Virus record (IMG/VR): IMGVR_UViG_3300027971_004105 | DNA: 64,000 nucleotides | Strand: one strand, 5' to 3' | From: a virus | Lineage: Duplodnaviria; Caudoviricetes | In this document: positions 32,403 through 38,458 of the stretch, piece after piece | How positions within the stretch are numbered: the first letter of the stretch is position 1 | Layout: every line of letters starts with the position of its first letter | The notes under the pieces: generated by a model | What the model was told of the DNA's origin: nothing | Seen by the model: only the letters and a program-made list of their open reading frames with translations | The model's database searches: none | Position numbers and translations under genes: made by a program

Positions 32403-32427
32403 CAGCATACAAGGACTAAATATACGT

Positions 32428-32791: not shown

Positions 32792-33379
32792 ATGCAACAT
32801 TTTTTCAGCATCATAGGCAAAGACATCAATCCAGAATCATTGTTGAACACAGCAATGAGCGAGAGCGCTATTGGATTGTTGGAAGACCAAACCACATATG
32901 AGATTTTTGAGGATGAAGATGACAATCAGGTATTGCGAGTGGAACTGCACAGATCATTGGATTCGACTGAAGCAGATGAATTGGCAGAAAGTTTAAACGA
33001 AAAACTGAAAGCCATGGGATTGAATGAATTTGACATTGAAATCAGCACTGACGAAACATTGGATGAAGAAACACTGGAAGGTGACGATTTTCATTCAGCC
33101 TATGATGTGATGTGGTTCAATGAAGATGAAAATTTAGATGAAGCAGAATACAGAGGACGCAAAGTGCCTTTGGGTAAACCCATGCAGGGAGACGTAAAAA
33201 AGTTTAAAGTGTATGTGCGAAAACCCAACGGCAATGTGGTCAAAGTGAACTTTGGTGATCCCAACATGAGAATTAGAAAATCCAATCCAGCAAGACGTAG
33301 AAGTTTTAGAGCAAGACACAACTGTGCTAACCCAGGTCCAAGAACAAAGGCCCGTTATTGGAGTTGTCGCAAATGGTAA
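32792..33379 (+). CDS. Bipartite protein: acidic N-part plus very basic C-terminal module
   Basis: D/E-rich up to DENLDE, then AEYRGRK...RRRSFRARHNC...RYWSCRKW. Confidence 0.6.
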   Translation: MQHFFSIIGKDINPESLLNTAMSESAIGLLEDQTTYEIFEDEDDNQVLRVELHRSLDSTEADELAESLNEKLKAMGLNEFDIEISTDETLDEETLEGDDFHSAYDVMWFNEDENLDEAEYRGRKVPLGKPMQGDVKKFKVYVRKPNGNVVKVNFGDPNMRIRKSNPARRRSFRARHNCANPGPRTKARYWSCRKW

Positions 33380-33564
33380 AAATTACAGATTACAAAACTC
33401 ATAAAAAAACTATCTCCAAGGAAGATCAAGAAGTATTCGATTGGATTGGACAGCAATTACAAGATGTTTATGATGGCAAGAATGTATATCTTTCAGATGA
33501 GTCAGTGGAGAAAGATAAACAAGCATGGTTAAAAACACAAATCACAACAGAGGAGATCAAATAA
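33373..33564 (+). CDS. Small hypothetical protein
   Basis: Start reassigned to MVKITDYK. Confidence 0.55.
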   Translation: MVKITDYKTHKKTISKEDQEVFDWIGQQLQDVYDGKNVYLSDESVEKDKQAWLKTQITTEEIK

Positions 33565-33565
33565 C

Positions 33566-33841
33566 ATGTGGGAAATGATTGAAAGAATGGTAGGAGATCG
33601 TCTGTGGATATACACAGGCATAATGGGTTCAATATTTGGTGCATTGTTTCTGACCTATATCAAAGACACTCGCATTGGCTTATGGGTGTACAGCAAGTGG
33701 GACGGAGCCATTGATTTCTTGCGTGATAGATATGGTTGGACTTGGTTAAATCAAGATCCAGATGCTTGGAAAAAATCAAATCCTGGTGCGGCCAAAAAGA
33801 TAGACGAATTAGAAGCAAGAATTAAAAGATTGGAAAAATAA
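33566..33841 (+). CDS. Small membrane protein
   Basis: TM segment LWIYTGIMGSIFGALFL; SD AGGAG. Confidence 0.6.
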   Translation: MWEMIERMVGDRLWIYTGIMGSIFGALFLTYIKDTRIGLWVYSKWDGAIDFLRDRYGWTWLNQDPDAWKKSNPGAAKKIDELEARIKRLEK

Positions 33842-33843
33842 TC

Positions 33844-34170
33844 ATGGTCAAGATGAAAGATTTCACAGCAATTACCAGAGACAACATGGGATATGATGTG
33901 GTAGAGGACATATATCAATTCATGTTGAATGACAGTGTTTTTTTTAGGAAACATTTCTTTCCAGTGGCCAAACAAGTCACAGACAATCATATGATTGAAA
34001 AAGATGTCAACATGTGGAGCAATTGTGTGGAAAATGCCATCCAAGAATATTTTAAAAAATTTAAAATCAAAGCCAAACCAGAAAAAATAATCAATGCAGA
34101 TGATCGCGTGAATCTTGTGGGCAAGATTACCAAAGGGTTGGCACAACATCCGGTCAAGAATGCACAATGA
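33844..34170 (+). CDS. Hypothetical protein
   Basis: 108 aa, coupled. Confidence 0.55.
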   Translation: MVKMKDFTAITRDNMGYDVVEDIYQFMLNDSVFFRKHFFPVAKQVTDNHMIEKDVNMWSNCVENAIQEYFKKFKIKAKPEKIINADDRVNLVGKITKGLAQHPVKNAQ

Positions 34171-34733
34171 GACTCATAGAAATAAGTCAGCCAGCGCCTA
34201 AAATTGCCGCATTTGCTTACGGCAGAATGAATCCACCCACCACAGGTCATAAAAAATTAGTGGATACCATTGCGTCTCAGCCAGGAGATCATTTTTTATT
34301 TTTAACACACACTCAAGATGCCAAAACAAATCCTTTGAGTTTTGAAGACAAAGTGCTGTATGCTCAAAAAATGTTCCCCACAGTCACAGTGGGAGATGCA
34401 GGAGTTAAAACCATCATTGATGCCATGAAGAAATTACAAGGCATGGGCTACCGAGATATCATATATGTGGCAGGTTCAGACAGAGTACAACAATTTGATC
34501 AATTGCTGAGCAAATACAATGGCAAAGATTATCAGTTTGACAGTATTAGAACTGTGAATGCTGGCATGAGAGATCCAGATGCCGAAGGTGCTGCAGGTGT
34601 GAGTGCCAGCAAAGCCCGTGAATATGCTGTGCAAGGTGCTAGACGCAGCTTTTTAAGCACCATTCCCGCAGATGAAAAAATTGGCAACGAGATATATCAA
34701 AAAATACGTCAAAACCTAAAGCAAACAGCATAA
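34167..34733 (+). CDS. HIGH-superfamily nucleotidyltransferase (cytidylyltransferase/NMNAT-like) with leader MRLIEIS
   Basis: YGRMNPPTTGH (HxGH variant), NPLSFEDK, VAGSDR, VSASK. Confidence 0.75.
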   Translation: MRLIEISQPAPKIAAFAYGRMNPPTTGHKKLVDTIASQPGDHFLFLTHTQDAKTNPLSFEDKVLYAQKMFPTVTVGDAGVKTIIDAMKKLQGMGYRDIIYVAGSDRVQQFDQLLSKYNGKDYQFDSIRTVNAGMRDPDAEGAAGVSASKAREYAVQGARRSFLSTIPADEKIGNEIYQKIRQNLKQTA

Positions 34734-34740
34734 ATATTGT

Positions 34741-34959
34741 ATGAACGAGATTGATAAATTAAAAAAACTGGCAGGCATAGACACTCTTTCACACACAATG
34801 CCATCAGTGGAAAATATCAGTCACACAGCACAGGCATTAAAAGACAAAGAAAAAAAATTAGGCTTGAAACCAGGTGATCCAGATTGGTTCAAACTGTGGT
34901 TCAGTCTGCCACACATGACTGGTTCAGTAGACAGTAAATTTAGAGGAAGAAAGAAATGA
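34741..34959 (+). CDS. Small late protein
   Basis: ATAAATA 34730-36; MNEIDKLKKLAGI. Confidence 0.6.
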   Translation: MNEIDKLKKLAGIDTLSHTMPSVENISHTAQALKDKEKKLGLKPGDPDWFKLWFSLPHMTGSVDSKFRGRKK

Positions 34960-35825
34960 AGCTAAGACACATCATCAACGAAATGGGTTCTAGAATGCCA
35001 TCATCTATGGTAAAAACTAAATCTAAACTGGACATGATGAATCCAGATGAGATTAGAGCGTTCTTTAAAAATAGAGAAGATTTTGCAGCACAACACAGAG
35101 GCGGAAAGATAGCACCAGGATTTTCAGCCAAAGAATTAGCACAGAGACAGGAGTTCAGCTATGGCAGAGAATTTGCCAAAGGTCGTCCTTACTCTAAACA
35201 TTTTGAAAGCACAGAATTAGACGAAGGTTTAAAAGATTGGTTACAAAAAATGGCTGTGGCTGGAATTATTGTGGGCAGTGTGGCAGGCATAGGTTCCATC
35301 AATAATGCCATCAATAATAATGTGCCAGTGATACAAGCCATGAACAAAGCATTAGATGTTGCTAATCAAAAAGGCGACAAACAATTGATACAGAACATAA
35401 AACAAGATATTGATGTGGCTAAAATAAGTTTGGATTCAGGCAAAGATTTGAATACTGTAAAGCAATTACAAGATAGATATGCAAAATTTATGCCAGCTGA
35501 TTATAAACCTTCTACTCCTAAGACAGTGGGCGAAGAAGTGTCTAAAACAGACACACTGACCATAGACATACCTATGTTTATTAGATTGATGGAATATGCC
35601 AGAGAAGATGCCAAGACTGATATGGATCTACACAATGTTACCACAAATTTATTAAAGATCAAAGACAAAACTATCAGCATGGCTGATTATGATCAAGTGG
35701 TTCAGTCCACAGATGTTGACACTGCTGACGAAAGTTTCAAAGATAAAATTGCTAAAAAAATTGTTCAACCCATAAAAGATTACAACAAAGACAAAGATAA
35801 AGAGCAAGAACCAAAAAAATCTTAA
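34956..35825 (+). CDS. Multi-module putative internal head protein (leader MKLRHIINE)
   Basis: Segments separated by E-rich junctions (ELDE, VGEE, TADE); hydrophobic stretch MAVAGIIVGSVAGIGSI. Confidence 0.55.
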   Translation: MKLRHIINEMGSRMPSSMVKTKSKLDMMNPDEIRAFFKNREDFAAQHRGGKIAPGFSAKELAQRQEFSYGREFAKGRPYSKHFESTELDEGLKDWLQKMAVAGIIVGSVAGIGSINNAINNNVPVIQAMNKALDVANQKGDKQLIQNIKQDIDVAKISLDSGKDLNTVKQLQDRYAKFMPADYKPSTPKTVGEEVSKTDTLTIDIPMFIRLMEYAREDAKTDMDLHNVTTNLLKIKDKTISMADYDQVVQSTDVDTADESFKDKIAKKIVQPIKDYNKDKDKEQEPKKS

Positions 35826-35829
35826 TCAT

Positions 35830-35991
35830 ATGATCAAAGAAAAACCATACTGTGTCAACTGCGGTGGGTCAACTCATTGTGGTAAAACTTTCAAAAGAAA
35901 AGAGAGCGAAACTGTCAATAACAAAGTCACACGTGAATGGACCATAGAAGTATGCCGCAATTGTTGTTGTTCAAAATGTGACAAAGAGTAA
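35830..35991 (+). CDS. 53-aa Cys-rich putative zinc-binding protein (not in the ORF track)
   Basis: MIKEKPYCVNCGGSTHCGKT...VCRNCCCSKCDKE; stop overlaps the next ATG. Confidence 0.6.
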   Translation: MIKEKPYCVNCGGSTHCGKTFKRKESETVNNKVTREWTIEVCRNCCCSKCDKE

Positions 35992-36710
35992 TGAAAATAG
36001 CCGAAATCACACATACCAAAATAACACTTGATTTGCACAACGAAAAGTTGTATAATAATACTTGCATGACAGAACAAAATCAAGTGAGACCCACTGTGTA
36101 TTTGGACATGGATGGTGTGATTGCTGACTTTTTTGGTGGAGTGGAGAAATTGTACGGTGTGGATCACTGGAAACAATTGACTTCTGACAAAACCAAAGAT
36201 CTCAAACAAGAAGTGATAGACAGAATAGCCGGCACAGATTTCTTTGCTAATCTGCCTAAATTTCCCACAACTGACACACTGATTGAAATGATTAAAAAAT
36301 TCACTGGTGGAAAATACAGCATACTAACATCTCCATTGAGAGGTGACACTGAAAACAGTGGATATTACAAAAAGATTTGGATAGGTAAAAACATAGTCAA
36401 GCCTGATGAGATTATTGTTACAGGCAGCAAAGAAGGTTGGGCCACAAAGAATGGTGTGAGCAACATATTGATTGACGATAGACCTATCAATATTGAAAAG
36501 TGGCGTGCCAAAGGTGGATATGGCATACTGTATCAAGCCAACAAAGATCCATTGAGCAAAGTCACACAAGCATTTGAAAATTATCATAAAAAACAATTGG
36601 AACCTGTGGAAGATGCAGCAGGCGTGGGCATCATTACCAAACAAAATACCACTCGAGATGTCAAACCAGGTGAGATCCGCAGACAAGCAAAAAAATTAAA
36701 ACTGGTTTAA
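35991..36710 (+). CDS. HAD-family 5'(3')-deoxyribonucleotidase-like protein with leader MKIAEIT
   Basis: VYLDMDGVIADF, ILTSP, LIDDRPINI..W...GG.GI. Confidence 0.78.
   Translation: MKIAEITHTKITLDLHNEKLYNNTCMTEQNQVRPTVYLDMDGVIADFFGGVEKLYGVDHWKQLTSDKTKDLKQEVIDRIAGTDFFANLPKFPTTDTLIEMIKKFTGGKYSILTSPLRGDTENSGYYKKIWIGKNIVKPDEIIVTGSKEGWATKNGVSNILIDDRPINIEKWRAKGGYGILYQANKDPLSKVTQAFENYHKKQLEPVEDAAGVGIITKQNTTRDVKPGEIRRQAKKLKLV
36028..36056 (+). promoter_or_regulatory. Internal sigma70-like promoter inside the leader-coding region
   Basis: TTGATT 36028-33, 17 nt, TATAAT 36051-56; in-frame ATG at 36066. Confidence 0.7.
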
Positions 36711-36714
36711 TACC

Positions 36715-36918
36715 ATGAAGATTCGTGAAGTAACAGAAAATTTTGCAGATGGCAAAGGTCCAGGCAAACCAGGTGACAGCAAGCGAGCAGGCATACCCAA
36801 AGGTGCTACCATCACACAATTAAAAAAGATACGCAGTTCTAAAACAGCATCCGCACGCAAGAAACAACTGGCACACTGGCAAATAAACATGCGCCAAGGT
36901 CGCAAACGCACTAAATAA
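36715..36918 (+). CDS. Small basic putative internal head protein
   Basis: MKIREVTE then NFADGKGPGKPG...; K/R-rich. Confidence 0.65.
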   Translation: MKIREVTENFADGKGPGKPGDSKRAGIPKGATITQLKKIRSSKTASARKKQLAHWQINMRQGRKRTK

Positions 36919-36925
36919 TAGTGCT

Positions 36926-37105
36926 ATGAAAATCAACGAAATTTTTAATTGTTCACTGTGTGGTAATCCCAGTTATCTAACACTGTCTGAATCTGAAAAA
37001 CAAAAAGGTGTGGACGGCAAAGTGTGTTGGAAAGGCTACAAACGCATGGGCACCAAAATGAAAGGTGGCAAACGTGTAGATAATTGTGTGCCATCAGGCA
37101 AATAG
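36926..37105 (+). CDS. 59-aa putative internal head protein (not in the ORF track)
   Basis: MKINEIFNCSLCG...SESEKQKGVDGKVCWKGYKRMGTKMKGGKRVDNCVPSGK; CTAAATA 36911-17. Confidence 0.65.
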   Translation: MKINEIFNCSLCGNPSYLTLSESEKQKGVDGKVCWKGYKRMGTKMKGGKRVDNCVPSGK

Positions 37106-37297
37106 ATGAAAATCAAAGAAATTACCGAATCCCGAGCAGATTATCATTACGGCATTGATCCAGCACAGTTGAGCTACACATTCAAAGTGGGCGATATATA
37201 CGGTCCAAAAAATCTCAAAGTACCACACGCAAGACTGTACAAAGGTGGCAAAGCAGTGAAAAAGCTGGGCATCACTGTGCCCAAAGTTCACAAATAA
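37106..37297 (+). CDS. Small putative internal head protein
   Basis: MKIKEITE leader. Confidence 0.62.
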   Translation: MKIKEITESRADYHYGIDPAQLSYTFKVGDIYGPKNLKVPHARLYKGGKAVKKLGITVPKVHK

Positions 37298-37335
37298 TCC
37301 CAAACACCACATAAATACAGCATAGGCGAAACACA

Positions 37336-37536
37336 ATGAAAATAAGAGACATCATAAGAGAAGTGGCATCTGTAGGATCCACATCTGCGGGCAATATTGC
37401 CAGCATAGCCAATCCACACGTGACCAATCCTTATGCTCACAAAAGTGCCAAAGCCAAACCCAAAAAACAAAAACCCACTGATAATGCACTGGACATGAAA
37501 AACGTCAGCATATTCGGCGGCCCATTAAAAAGATAA
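37336..37536 (+). CDS. Small putative internal head protein
   Basis: MKIRDIIRE leader; ATAAATA 37311-17. Confidence 0.62.
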   Translation: MKIRDIIREVASVGSTSAGNIASIANPHVTNPYAHKSAKAKPKKQKPTDNALDMKNVSIFGGPLKR

Positions 37537-37544
37537 ATACTCAT

Positions 37545-37922
37545 ATGAAATACAAACAGATCAAAGAAGGTTTAGGAGATGCAGCTCACAAAGCTGAGTT
37601 GGATCACGAAGTTCAAATGGCTCGTGCTGACCTATACAAGTTGGCCAAATACAGCATCAAACTGCATGAGTTGTTAAAGAACGTTTCGGAAGCAGAAGGT
37701 CTGGAAGGTTGGGTTCAAGCCAAGATCACTAAAGCTGCTGATTACATCAGTTCTGTGTATCATTACATGGATTATGATGAAAAATTTGATCAAGCTGAAA
37801 TTGACAGCATACCTGTGCAAGACATTGCGAAACAATCCGATGGCAAAATAGAAACCTACGAAGAGATTCTTTTTAAAATCTTAAATAAAAAAGTCACAGA
37901 GAAGAAAAATAACAAAAAATAA
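37545..37922 (+). CDS. Putative internal head protein
   Basis: MKYKQIKE leader; ATAAATA 37533-39. Confidence 0.62.
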   Translation: MKYKQIKEGLGDAAHKAELDHEVQMARADLYKLAKYSIKLHELLKNVSEAEGLEGWVQAKITKAADYISSVYHYMDYDEKFDQAEIDSIPVQDIAKQSDGKIETYEEILFKILNKKVTEKKNNKK

Positions 37923-37939
37923 AAAATTGGAGTGCTGGA

Positions 37940-38458
37940 ATGAAAATTAATGAAATAGTTTCAGAAGCACCTTTTGTCAAAGCATTAAAAAGTTTCCCTG
38001 CTCAAGCAACCAAAGCCATAAAAAATTTCCCCAATCAAATAAAGCAAGGCGCCAAAGACGTTAAACAAACAGTAAAAAACTTTCCAGGAAGTGTTCAAAA
38101 TTATTTGTCAAAAGACGACAATATGTCTAAAATAGCCACTGATATTTCCACCATAGGTGGTGGCCCAGGTCTTAAAGACTATGGAGCTGGTGACAAATCA
38201 TCAGATGCACAATTTCAGGATCTGTTAAATGTGCTACAGGATAAATCCTTGAGCAAAAAAATTGACAAGCAAAAAATTACCACAGCAATGACAAACATGT
38301 ATCAATCAGATAGACAACTTCCCACTGATAGACAGTATTTTATAAATGCAATCAAGCATTTATCCGCAACACACCCAGAGATCACGCCAGACAAAATATA
38401 CAGCGAGTATAAACCAATATTCAAAAGATATCAAATCAATCCTAACGAAATAAAATAA
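37940..38458 (+). CDS. Putative internal head protein
   Basis: MKINEIVSE leader; K(S/N)FP motif repeated three times. Confidence 0.6.
   Translation: MKINEIVSEAPFVKALKSFPAQATKAIKNFPNQIKQGAKDVKQTVKNFPGSVQNYLSKDDNMSKIATDISTIGGGPGLKDYGAGDKSSDAQFQDLLNVLQDKSLSKKIDKQKITTAMTNMYQSDRQLPTDRQYFINAIKHLSATHPEITPDKIYSEYKPIFKRYQINPNEIK

Follow-up and report, generated by a model that had tools for sequence, protein, structure and literature searches.

A shared N-terminal leader on a variable gene array of an uncultured jumbo phage as a candidate capsid-targeting and cleavage signal

Why do neighbouring phage genes with largely dissimilar products begin with nearly the same few amino acids? The question is raised by positions 32,792 to 38,458 of IMGVR_UViG_3300027971_004105, a 64,000-nucleotide stretch of viral DNA (the window), which comes from a jumbo phage of freshwater, as yet uncultured. 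The phage has a T4-type family-B DNA polymerase, for which the nearest cultured phages are Sinorhizobium phage Phosso, at 48% identity, and Agrobacterium phage Atu_ph07, at 45%. A densely packed run of + strand genes is situated downstream of dnaJ, def and clpA, and nine consecutive + strand genes (34167-38458, two small leaderless genes lying among them) have starts of the type M-[KR]-h-x-[ED]-h, in which h is a hydrophobic residue. From comparison with related phages and with T4 we infer targeting, cleavage and virion presence: the array proteins are probably packed into the capsid via this leader and cut at the leader Glu. The genes of the region are listed here, an arrow marking a predicted cut.

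32792..33379, + strand: 195-residue acidic protein, start MQHFFSIIGKD; orthologues begin MEHFVRIVME (10-mer in the T4 register with a V-M-E end); C-terminal basic module phrog_7595
33373..33564, + strand: 63-residue protein, start MVKITDYKTH; leader in the T4 register (h4, D6, Y7)
33844..34170, + strand: 108-residue protein, start MVKMKDFTAI; compare T4 IPI, MKTFKEFTS
34167..34733, + strand: HIGH-motif nucleotidyltransferase, leader MRLIEIS; T4-GC190 family (phrog_3041, 2e-48); catalytic domain from about residue 14
34741..34959, + strand: 72-residue protein, MNEIDKLKKLAGI; without standard leader; N-terminal K-x-LAGI, the motif of the relatives' scaffold C-terminal tail
34956..35825, + strand: 289-residue helical protein, leader MKLRHIINE↓M; hydrophobic stretch at about residues 99-115
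35830..35991, + strand: 53-residue Cys-rich protein without leader
35991..36710, + strand: 5'-deoxyribonucleotidase (NT5C/HAD), leader MKIAEIT; PF06941 at residues 33-183
36715..36918, + strand: 67-residue protein, isoelectric point (pI) 11.7, leader MKIREVTE, then module A (NFADGK...HWQINMRQGRKR)
36926..37105, + strand: 59-residue basic Cys-rich module B (CxxCGNPS...CWKGYKRMG...NCV), leader MKINEIF
37106..37297, + strand: 63-residue basic protein, leader MKIKEITE↓S
37336..37536, + strand: 66-residue protein, pI 10.4, leader MKIRDIIRE, then module D (VASVGSTSAGNIASIANP)
37545..37922, + strand: 125-residue module C (GLGD..DHEVQMAR..KYSIKLH), leader MKYKQIKE↓G
37940..38458, + strand: 172-residue protein, leader MKINEIVSE↓AP; about 75 variable disordered residues, then a confident helical domain

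The leader and its likeness to the T4 capsid-targeting sequence

The original prediction had pointed to nine starts of the MKIxEI type, and all are present as written. Seven of the nine match ^M[KR][ILV]x[ED][ILV]; the N-terminal composition of the remaining genes in the window predicts 0.07 matches, and of these roughly 85 genes not one matches. A looser pattern that allows two registers gains gene 33373 (MVKITDY); outside the array it finds only two open reading frames (ORFs), both doubtful. The Joint Genome Institute's independent gene calls on a contig of about 90% identity give equal ORF lengths.

The leader is not confined to this phage. Among 83 related loci, 80 obtained via clpA (65-70% ClpA identity) and three near-identical ones via gene 37940, it is found on 120 of 2018 crude ORFs, every one on the + strand and, in the clpA-anchored loci, every one downstream of clpA. 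These ORFs span 56 to 551 residues, and many families carry the leader across about 75 related phage contigs and metagenome homologues; 99 strict-pattern proteins of the related loci fall into 14 single-linkage clusters, one of which is a 250-protein mosaic cluster. In the complete 357-kb genome of one relative, G003, about 11 strict leaders were found, in a few clusters.

In 158 non-redundant leaders, which were selected by pattern with positions 3 and 6 (I/L/V/F) defining the selection, the conserved positions are 3, 6, 7 and 8/9. Outside the selection, 42% of the leaders have Arg or Lys at position 4 and 59% have F/I/L/V at position 7, and Glu occupies position 8 in 31% and position 9 in 27%; the consensus is M-[KR]-[IL]-x-E-[LI]-[FI]-x-E. 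The codons vary freely (AAA/AAG/AGA/CGT at one position, ATA/ATT/TTA/CTA/GTA at another), and it is therefore the peptide that is under selection rather than the RNA; this codon diversity, together with upstream DNA in which there is no conservation beyond the Shine-Dalgarno signal, largely rules out a signal in the RNA or the translation context. Metagenome homologues of genes 37940 and 34956 keep the leader with little or no change (MKLRDIINE and MKLRHIISE in homologues of 34956), and the next 40 or so residues are rich in changes and insertions or deletions. Three metagenome homologues of 37940 (P0009-P0011) are identical to it over the first 38 residues at only about 43-45% identity overall, a pattern that points to a recombination joint directly behind the leader.

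What does such a peptide resemble? The capsid-targeting sequence (CTS) of T4 and the diversity of internal proteins among T-even phages are well established. In the T4 genome (NC_000866), IPII and IPIII begin MKTYQEFIAE↓A and IPI begins MKTFKEFTS...ITE↓A. The array leader follows the same pattern, h-x-E-h-h-x-E, minus one residue, so that its usual register is 9 and not 10, and a variant in the T4 register is also present (MEHFVRIVME, MVKMKDFTA). Six of the nine window leaders close with hydrophobic-x-Glu, the type of site used by the T4 head protease, at residue 8 or 9. In T4, targeting is governed by residues 4 and 7 of the leader and processing by residues 8 and 10 (PMC9026906, a review of Mullaney and Black's work).

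The array also appears to be expressed late. The sequence [AC]TAAATA occurs 21 times on the + strand of the window and twice on the - strand, and 18 of the 21 copies lie 10-35 nt 5' of a + strand start, those of four tail-fibre genes among them. It is this bias in strand and position that makes the signal, not the count, as plain ATAAATA is no more frequent in the window than expected by chance. The motif fits a T4-type late promoter, and hence late expression of the array. That several of the genes have such a motif of their own, as had been claimed, was borne out; five copies serve the array.

32416..32422, + strand: late-promoter-like CTAAATA, 12 nt 5' of the 120-residue gene that follows clpA
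34730..34736, + strand: late-promoter-like ATAAATA, 11 nt 5' of 34741
36911..36917, + strand: late-promoter-like CTAAATA, 15 nt 5' of 36926
37311..37317, + strand: late-promoter-like ATAAATA, 25 nt 5' of 37336
37533..37539, + strand: late-promoter-like ATAAATA, 12 nt 5' of 37545

Predicted cleavage sites and exchangeable cargo

A leader of this kind calls for a head protease of the gp21 type. In T4, Asp in place of the Glu prevents processing and leaves targeting unaffected. A member of the gp21 family (PF03420) was found at 91 bits in three of three large related records. In G003 the head module has the T4 order of portal, small core gene, protease, scaffold and gp23-type capsid protein (PF07068, 329 bits), the portal-like and scaffold-like ORFs being named by position and sequence without a family match. 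The 82-residue gene at the position of T4 gp67 starts MILRELF, and a 275-residue protein with the start MKISDITNE flanks the module. In T4, exactly 65 residues are removed from gp23, at E65↓A66 (PMC9958956), and the sequence YLAE↓SATAG of the relatives' capsid protein was aligned with this site (FLTE65↓A66). Among 79 capsid proteins of the clade that were read, the site has the form YLxE↓[ST]AxxGATSAGN[VI]ATLN; the core GATSAG is exact in 73, and six deviate by one or two residues.

This maturation site recurs in the array. Gene 37336 reads MKIRDIIRE↓VASVGSTSAGNIA, given also as MKIRDIIRE↓VASVGSTSAGNIASI, and its body, module D, matches the capsid site E↓xAxxGATSAGN at E=5e-5. Module D is found behind h-x-E in other proteins as well, at N-terminal and at internal positions. 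Judged by this alignment, module D of 37336 is a copy of the predicted mature N-terminus, or arm, of the clade's major capsid protein. Possible roles of the product are those of decoy substrate, head-protease regulator or ligand of the inner capsid surface.

A second junction supports the same type of site. Thirty-five larger proteins end with module A, the body of 36715 (NFADGK...HWQINMR), as their C-terminal 55 or so residues. In all 28 distinct upstream contexts the residue before the module (P1) is Glu, and P3 is I/L/V/M in 25 of the 28 against a background of 23% (p=3e-13), with P2 and P4-P8 variable. A single ORF encodes both the nucleotidase and module A in two related loci (L016, L020). 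The window, by comparison, has two genes, and the one for module A carries a leader of its own that closes with V-T-E. If processing takes place at hydrophobic-x-Glu, one ORF or two would make no difference to the mature products, and the fusions joined by such sites in relatives imply that one leader could load several modules, which the protease then separates.

The bodies behind the leaders had been described as unrelated. By BLASTP this is so apart from one weak match between 36715 and 37106 (E=0.005); they are nevertheless drawn from a shared pool of shuffling modules, as several of them recur fused in other combinations in related phages. Gene content varies strongly among close relatives. 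The payload of the nine genes comprises two enzymes, three proteins without an assigned family and four peptides that are 59-67 residues long and have pI 9.5-11.7. No match to the array was obtained in cultured phages by nucleotide search, nor a protein match there to genes 37940 and 36715; NCBIfam had no match for five array proteins, and Pfam and PHROG gave no internal-virion-protein family among ten proteins scanned.

The nucleotidyltransferase 34167 links the array to a protein seen in virions. It belongs to the cyanophage 'cytidylyltransferase' family T4-GC190, which has members in 563 phage records, and is 36-45% identical to cyanophage members (E about 1e-30 to 1e-37). Orthologues start MLITEIVEAP, MFLRELFEAP and MRLRELFESP; SSM1_190 of cyanophage S-SM1 and gp184 of Syn9 start MKKFSAFLNE↓A, in the T4 register, and the orthologue of Pelagibacter phage HTVC008M starts MKTLKELLRK. 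The T4-GC190 protein was detected by mass spectrometry in purified S-SM1 virions (Sullivan et al., PMC3037559). As S-SM1 and Syn9 carry the leader and the orthologues of P-HM2 and Yersinia phage fHe-Yen9-03 do not, the enzyme exists with and without the tag, and one tagged form is present in virions, those of S-SM1. A search of PDB sequences brought up phosphopantetheine adenylyltransferase at a marginal E of about 0.6; an identity of 34167 as NMN (nicotinamide mononucleotide) adenylyltransferase is supported by no result.

The second enzyme, the nucleotidase 35991, matches mitochondrial 5'-nucleotidase marginally in the PDB sequence search (E 0.003). Its N-terminal extension of 30 residues is conserved in the protein sequence of orthologues (...NKRLYNE[DN]M...), and the long form is thus translated. 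An in-frame Met stands directly before the HAD motif (window 35991-36066). Gene 34956 gave an all-helical structure model of low confidence (predicted local distance difference test, pLDDT, 54). Its hydrophobic stretch AVAGIIVGSVAGIGSI, at about residues 99-115, could be a membrane helix; the ejection protein gp47 of phage SPN3US has a hydrophobic helix in its mature part (PMC5694885). The confident C-terminal helical domain of 37940 found no fold match in PDB or BFVD.

Larger fusions in relatives give an impression of the pool. L042_16566 (615 residues) joins a HAD-like domain, an HExxH module and module A, and L020_5355 joins NT5C and module A. The HExxH module (...TLAHELVHRKQNE...) sits between the N-terminal HAD-like domain and the C-terminal basic module A in leader-bearing proteins of relatives and weakly matches DUF6782, a 'putative metallopeptidase' (E=0.0014). 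Homologues of module C lie within large modular proteins near the gene for the terminase large subunit in cyanophage S-SM2 and Flavobacterium phage immuto. Further parts of the S-SM2 protein are DUF192, DUF6321 and two modules, CW-x-GY-K and WPSAYASGALVKCRK, and the immuto protein has a leader-like start, MKKLIRIVEAG.

L042:16566-18413, L007:16539-18284 and L047:20801 onward: proteins with the HExxH module
L090:3698-5824 (S-SM2 SSM2_109) and L091:3071-5596 (immuto gp079): module C homologues

One further motif connects the cargo with the scaffold. The sequence [KR]-x-LAG-[IL] ends the gp22-like scaffolds of G003 (...IKRLAGLN) and a second relative, G004 (...IVRLAGLK), as well as two other G003 proteins, and the 72-residue family of gene 34741, with about 20 orthologues, opens M[ND]IxDLK[KR]LAGI. 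In two larger proteins the motif directly precedes module D. It may be a second capsid-binding address that resembles the scaffold tail.

G003 110536-111630 (L087:8537-9631, - strand), L028:16570-17451 and window 34741-34959: [KR]-x-LAG-[IL] sites

Packaging, delivery and the alternatives

Altogether, the array may be read as a late-expressed locus of head-internal cargo proteins. Its amphipathic leader M-[KR]-h-x-[ED]-h-h-x-E would be the counterpart of the T4 CTS, whose hydrophobic residues dock the protein on the scaffolding core while the prohead is built. The leader would then be removed by a prohead protease of the gp21 type, cutting behind the Glu in the closing hydrophobic-x-Glu, and the mature payload (very basic peptides, two nucleotide-handling enzymes and helical proteins) would stay in the head with the DNA. 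Payload modules are freely exchanged, and relatives fuse them via the same hydrophobic-x-Glu sites. The predicted packaging is well supported by the selection on the peptide, the T4 CTS pattern, the gp21-family protease of the relatives, the hydrophobic-x-Glu junctions, the copy of the capsid site, the late promoters and the tagged orthologue in S-SM1 virions.

Several points weigh against this reading. The likeness to T4 is that of a pattern of about nine residues, one residue shorter, and is not demonstrable homology. MRLIEISQP, MKIAEITHTK and MKINEIFNCS have no Glu at positions 8-10, and their only I/L-x-E is at residues 3-5; otherwise the original proposal of a T4-like, protease-removed leader on a diverse payload stood up to every comparative test applied. 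The evidence on protease, scaffold and capsid protein is that of relatives with 65-70% ClpA identity. For modules A, C and D the preceding Glu could belong to the module itself, a reading that the hydrophobic P3 weakens for module A only. Metabolic enzymes are unusual as capsid cargo, T4 Alt and the S-SM1 enzyme being precedents. Finally, the array adjoins clpA, dnaJ and def, not head genes.

It is tempting to go one step further and to propose a general cargo system, in which any module placed after hydrophobic-x-Glu rides into the prohead behind one 9-residue address and is released by the head protease. Genes could then be split or fused without altering the mature products, a capsid-site mimic peptide would be among the passengers as decoy, timer or inner-surface ligand, and K-x-LAG-[IL] would possibly be a scaffold-tail address. 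This joint reading is tentative, and we would not count on it. Delivery into the host, with a role in anti-defence or host takeover, which the original prediction also envisaged, is unsupported and pure inference.

The strongest alternative is packaging without delivery: the proteins would be packaged and processed but serve head assembly or DNA condensation rather than act as effectors, for instance as accessory core proteins or DNA-counterion peptides, with module D as decoy substrate or mimic of the capsid N-arm. Several payloads are indeed peptides of 50-60 residues with pI 9.5-11.7, module D copies the N-terminus of the capsid protein, the G003 gene at the position of T4 gp67 has the leader, and the T4 core proteins gp67 and gp68 are also processed by gp21. 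On the other hand, two payloads are enzymes with intact catalytic motifs and no obvious role in assembly, and the strong variation in gene content among close relatives is unlike that of essential assembly parts. We regard this alternative as rather unlikely.

Much less probable is that the leader is a tag for the phage ClpA/ClpS/ClpP or chaperone set encoded directly upstream, which would time degradation or unfolding. The tagged genes lie directly downstream of dnaJ-def-clpA in 80 related loci, but this synteny is partly due to the sampling of loci by clpA, and in G003 tagged genes also cluster elsewhere (at 327, 347-357 and 114-121 kb), the last cluster adjoining the head genes. A Clp tag would also leave the hydrophobic-x-Glu junctions and the copy of the capsid site unexplained. 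The leader motif is not known to resemble any degron; it was the T4 CTS and the gp21 site that matched.

The probability is smaller still that a modifying enzyme recognizes the leader, in the manner of ribosomally synthesized and post-translationally modified peptides. Here the precedent is a general one, of one enzyme serving many precursors with the same leader, and about 75 related loci revealed no CxxxCxxC of the radical S-adenosylmethionine type and no other conserved candidate enzyme beside the arrays; the only four CxxxCxxC matches were all Cys-rich cargo modules. Least probable of all is a nucleic-acid feature (translation-initiation context or recombination joint) or chance without peptide function: the other ORFs of the loci have Lys more often than any other residue at position 2, and P0009-P0011 share the first 38 residues of 37940 exactly and little thereafter, but conservative replacements are made via unrelated codons (Arg by AGA or CGT; Ile/Leu/Val/Phe by many), upstream DNA is unconserved, the unconstrained positions 4 and 7-9 are still informative, and seven matches face 0.07 expected.

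Returning to packaging via the leader, if the tag has its T4 function, one could read from the genome sequence which proteins a phage co-injects, and it is injected proteins that act first in host takeover and counter-defence. The candidate cargo consists of basic peptides, a nucleotidyltransferase, a 5'-deoxyribonucleotidase and helical domains without known fold, and it comes with a testable cleavage rule. If true, the reading covers a large, environmentally common (freshwater and marine) group of uncultured jumbo phages and, judging by the N-termini of S-SM1, Syn9 and HTVC008M, extends to cyanophages and pelagiphages. Should the general cargo system also hold, the injected proteome of uncultured T4-related phages would be predictable from sequence alone, and enzymes such as the nucleotidyltransferase and the deoxyribonucleotidase would be delivered before any phage gene is expressed.

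Comparison with known systems

The closest parallel is the CTS of T4, a short N-terminal peptide that is likewise carried by otherwise unrelated proteins (IPI, IPII, IPIII and the Alt propeptide) and removed by gp21. Common features are the h-x-E-h-h-x-E pattern, with a hydrophobic-x-Glu end in six of the nine window leaders, late expression (here deduced from promoter motifs) and a gp21-family protease together with a gp20/21/22/23-type head module (here in relatives). The cargo is comparable too, comprising small basic proteins and enzymes in a set that differs among related phages. The differences are equally clear. At least 9-12 tagged genes stand in this one array, compared with three to four in T4; the payloads are dissimilar to IPI-III, so that the likeness proposed is one of function and not of family membership; and the modules here split and fuse around internal hydrophobic-x-Glu sites, with one payload copying the capsid maturation site. 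In the literature searched we found no description for T4 of such fission and fusion or of a maturation-site copy, nor did the searchable literature yield an account of CTS-type leaders in this jumbo-phage clade or in cyanophages. New, then, are the 9-residue register, the fission and fusion of modules at hydrophobic-x-Glu, the capsid maturation-site copy and the link to a virion enzyme verified by mass spectrometry. Cyanophage T4-GC190 proteins differ from 34167 in their length of about 385 residues and in having a C-terminal domain and a 70-residue linker, and the paper that reported the virion protein does not discuss a targeting leader (PMC3037559).

In phiKZ-like giant phages (phiKZ, 201phi2-1, SPN3US) a gp21-related protease cuts propeptides at A/S/G-x-E, many head-internal proteins are processed after Glu, and paralogues share conserved N-termini (PMC5694885). 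Their propeptides are mostly longer than 100 residues with a small P3 (A/S/G), whereas the array leaders have 8-10 residues and, as in T4, I/L/V at P3.

Polyvalent proteins (Iyer et al. 2017, PMC5512222) may be another parallel, since the relatives of the window phage also join unrelated activities in one polypeptide, namely a nucleotidyltransferase or HAD nucleotidase, an HExxH metallopeptidase-like module and basic tails, and packaging and processing are predicted in both cases. In the window, however, most modules are small genes of their own, each headed by a leader, in the context of clpA and not of head genes, and their processing would be by the head protease at hydrophobic-x-Glu rather than by a built-in peptidase.

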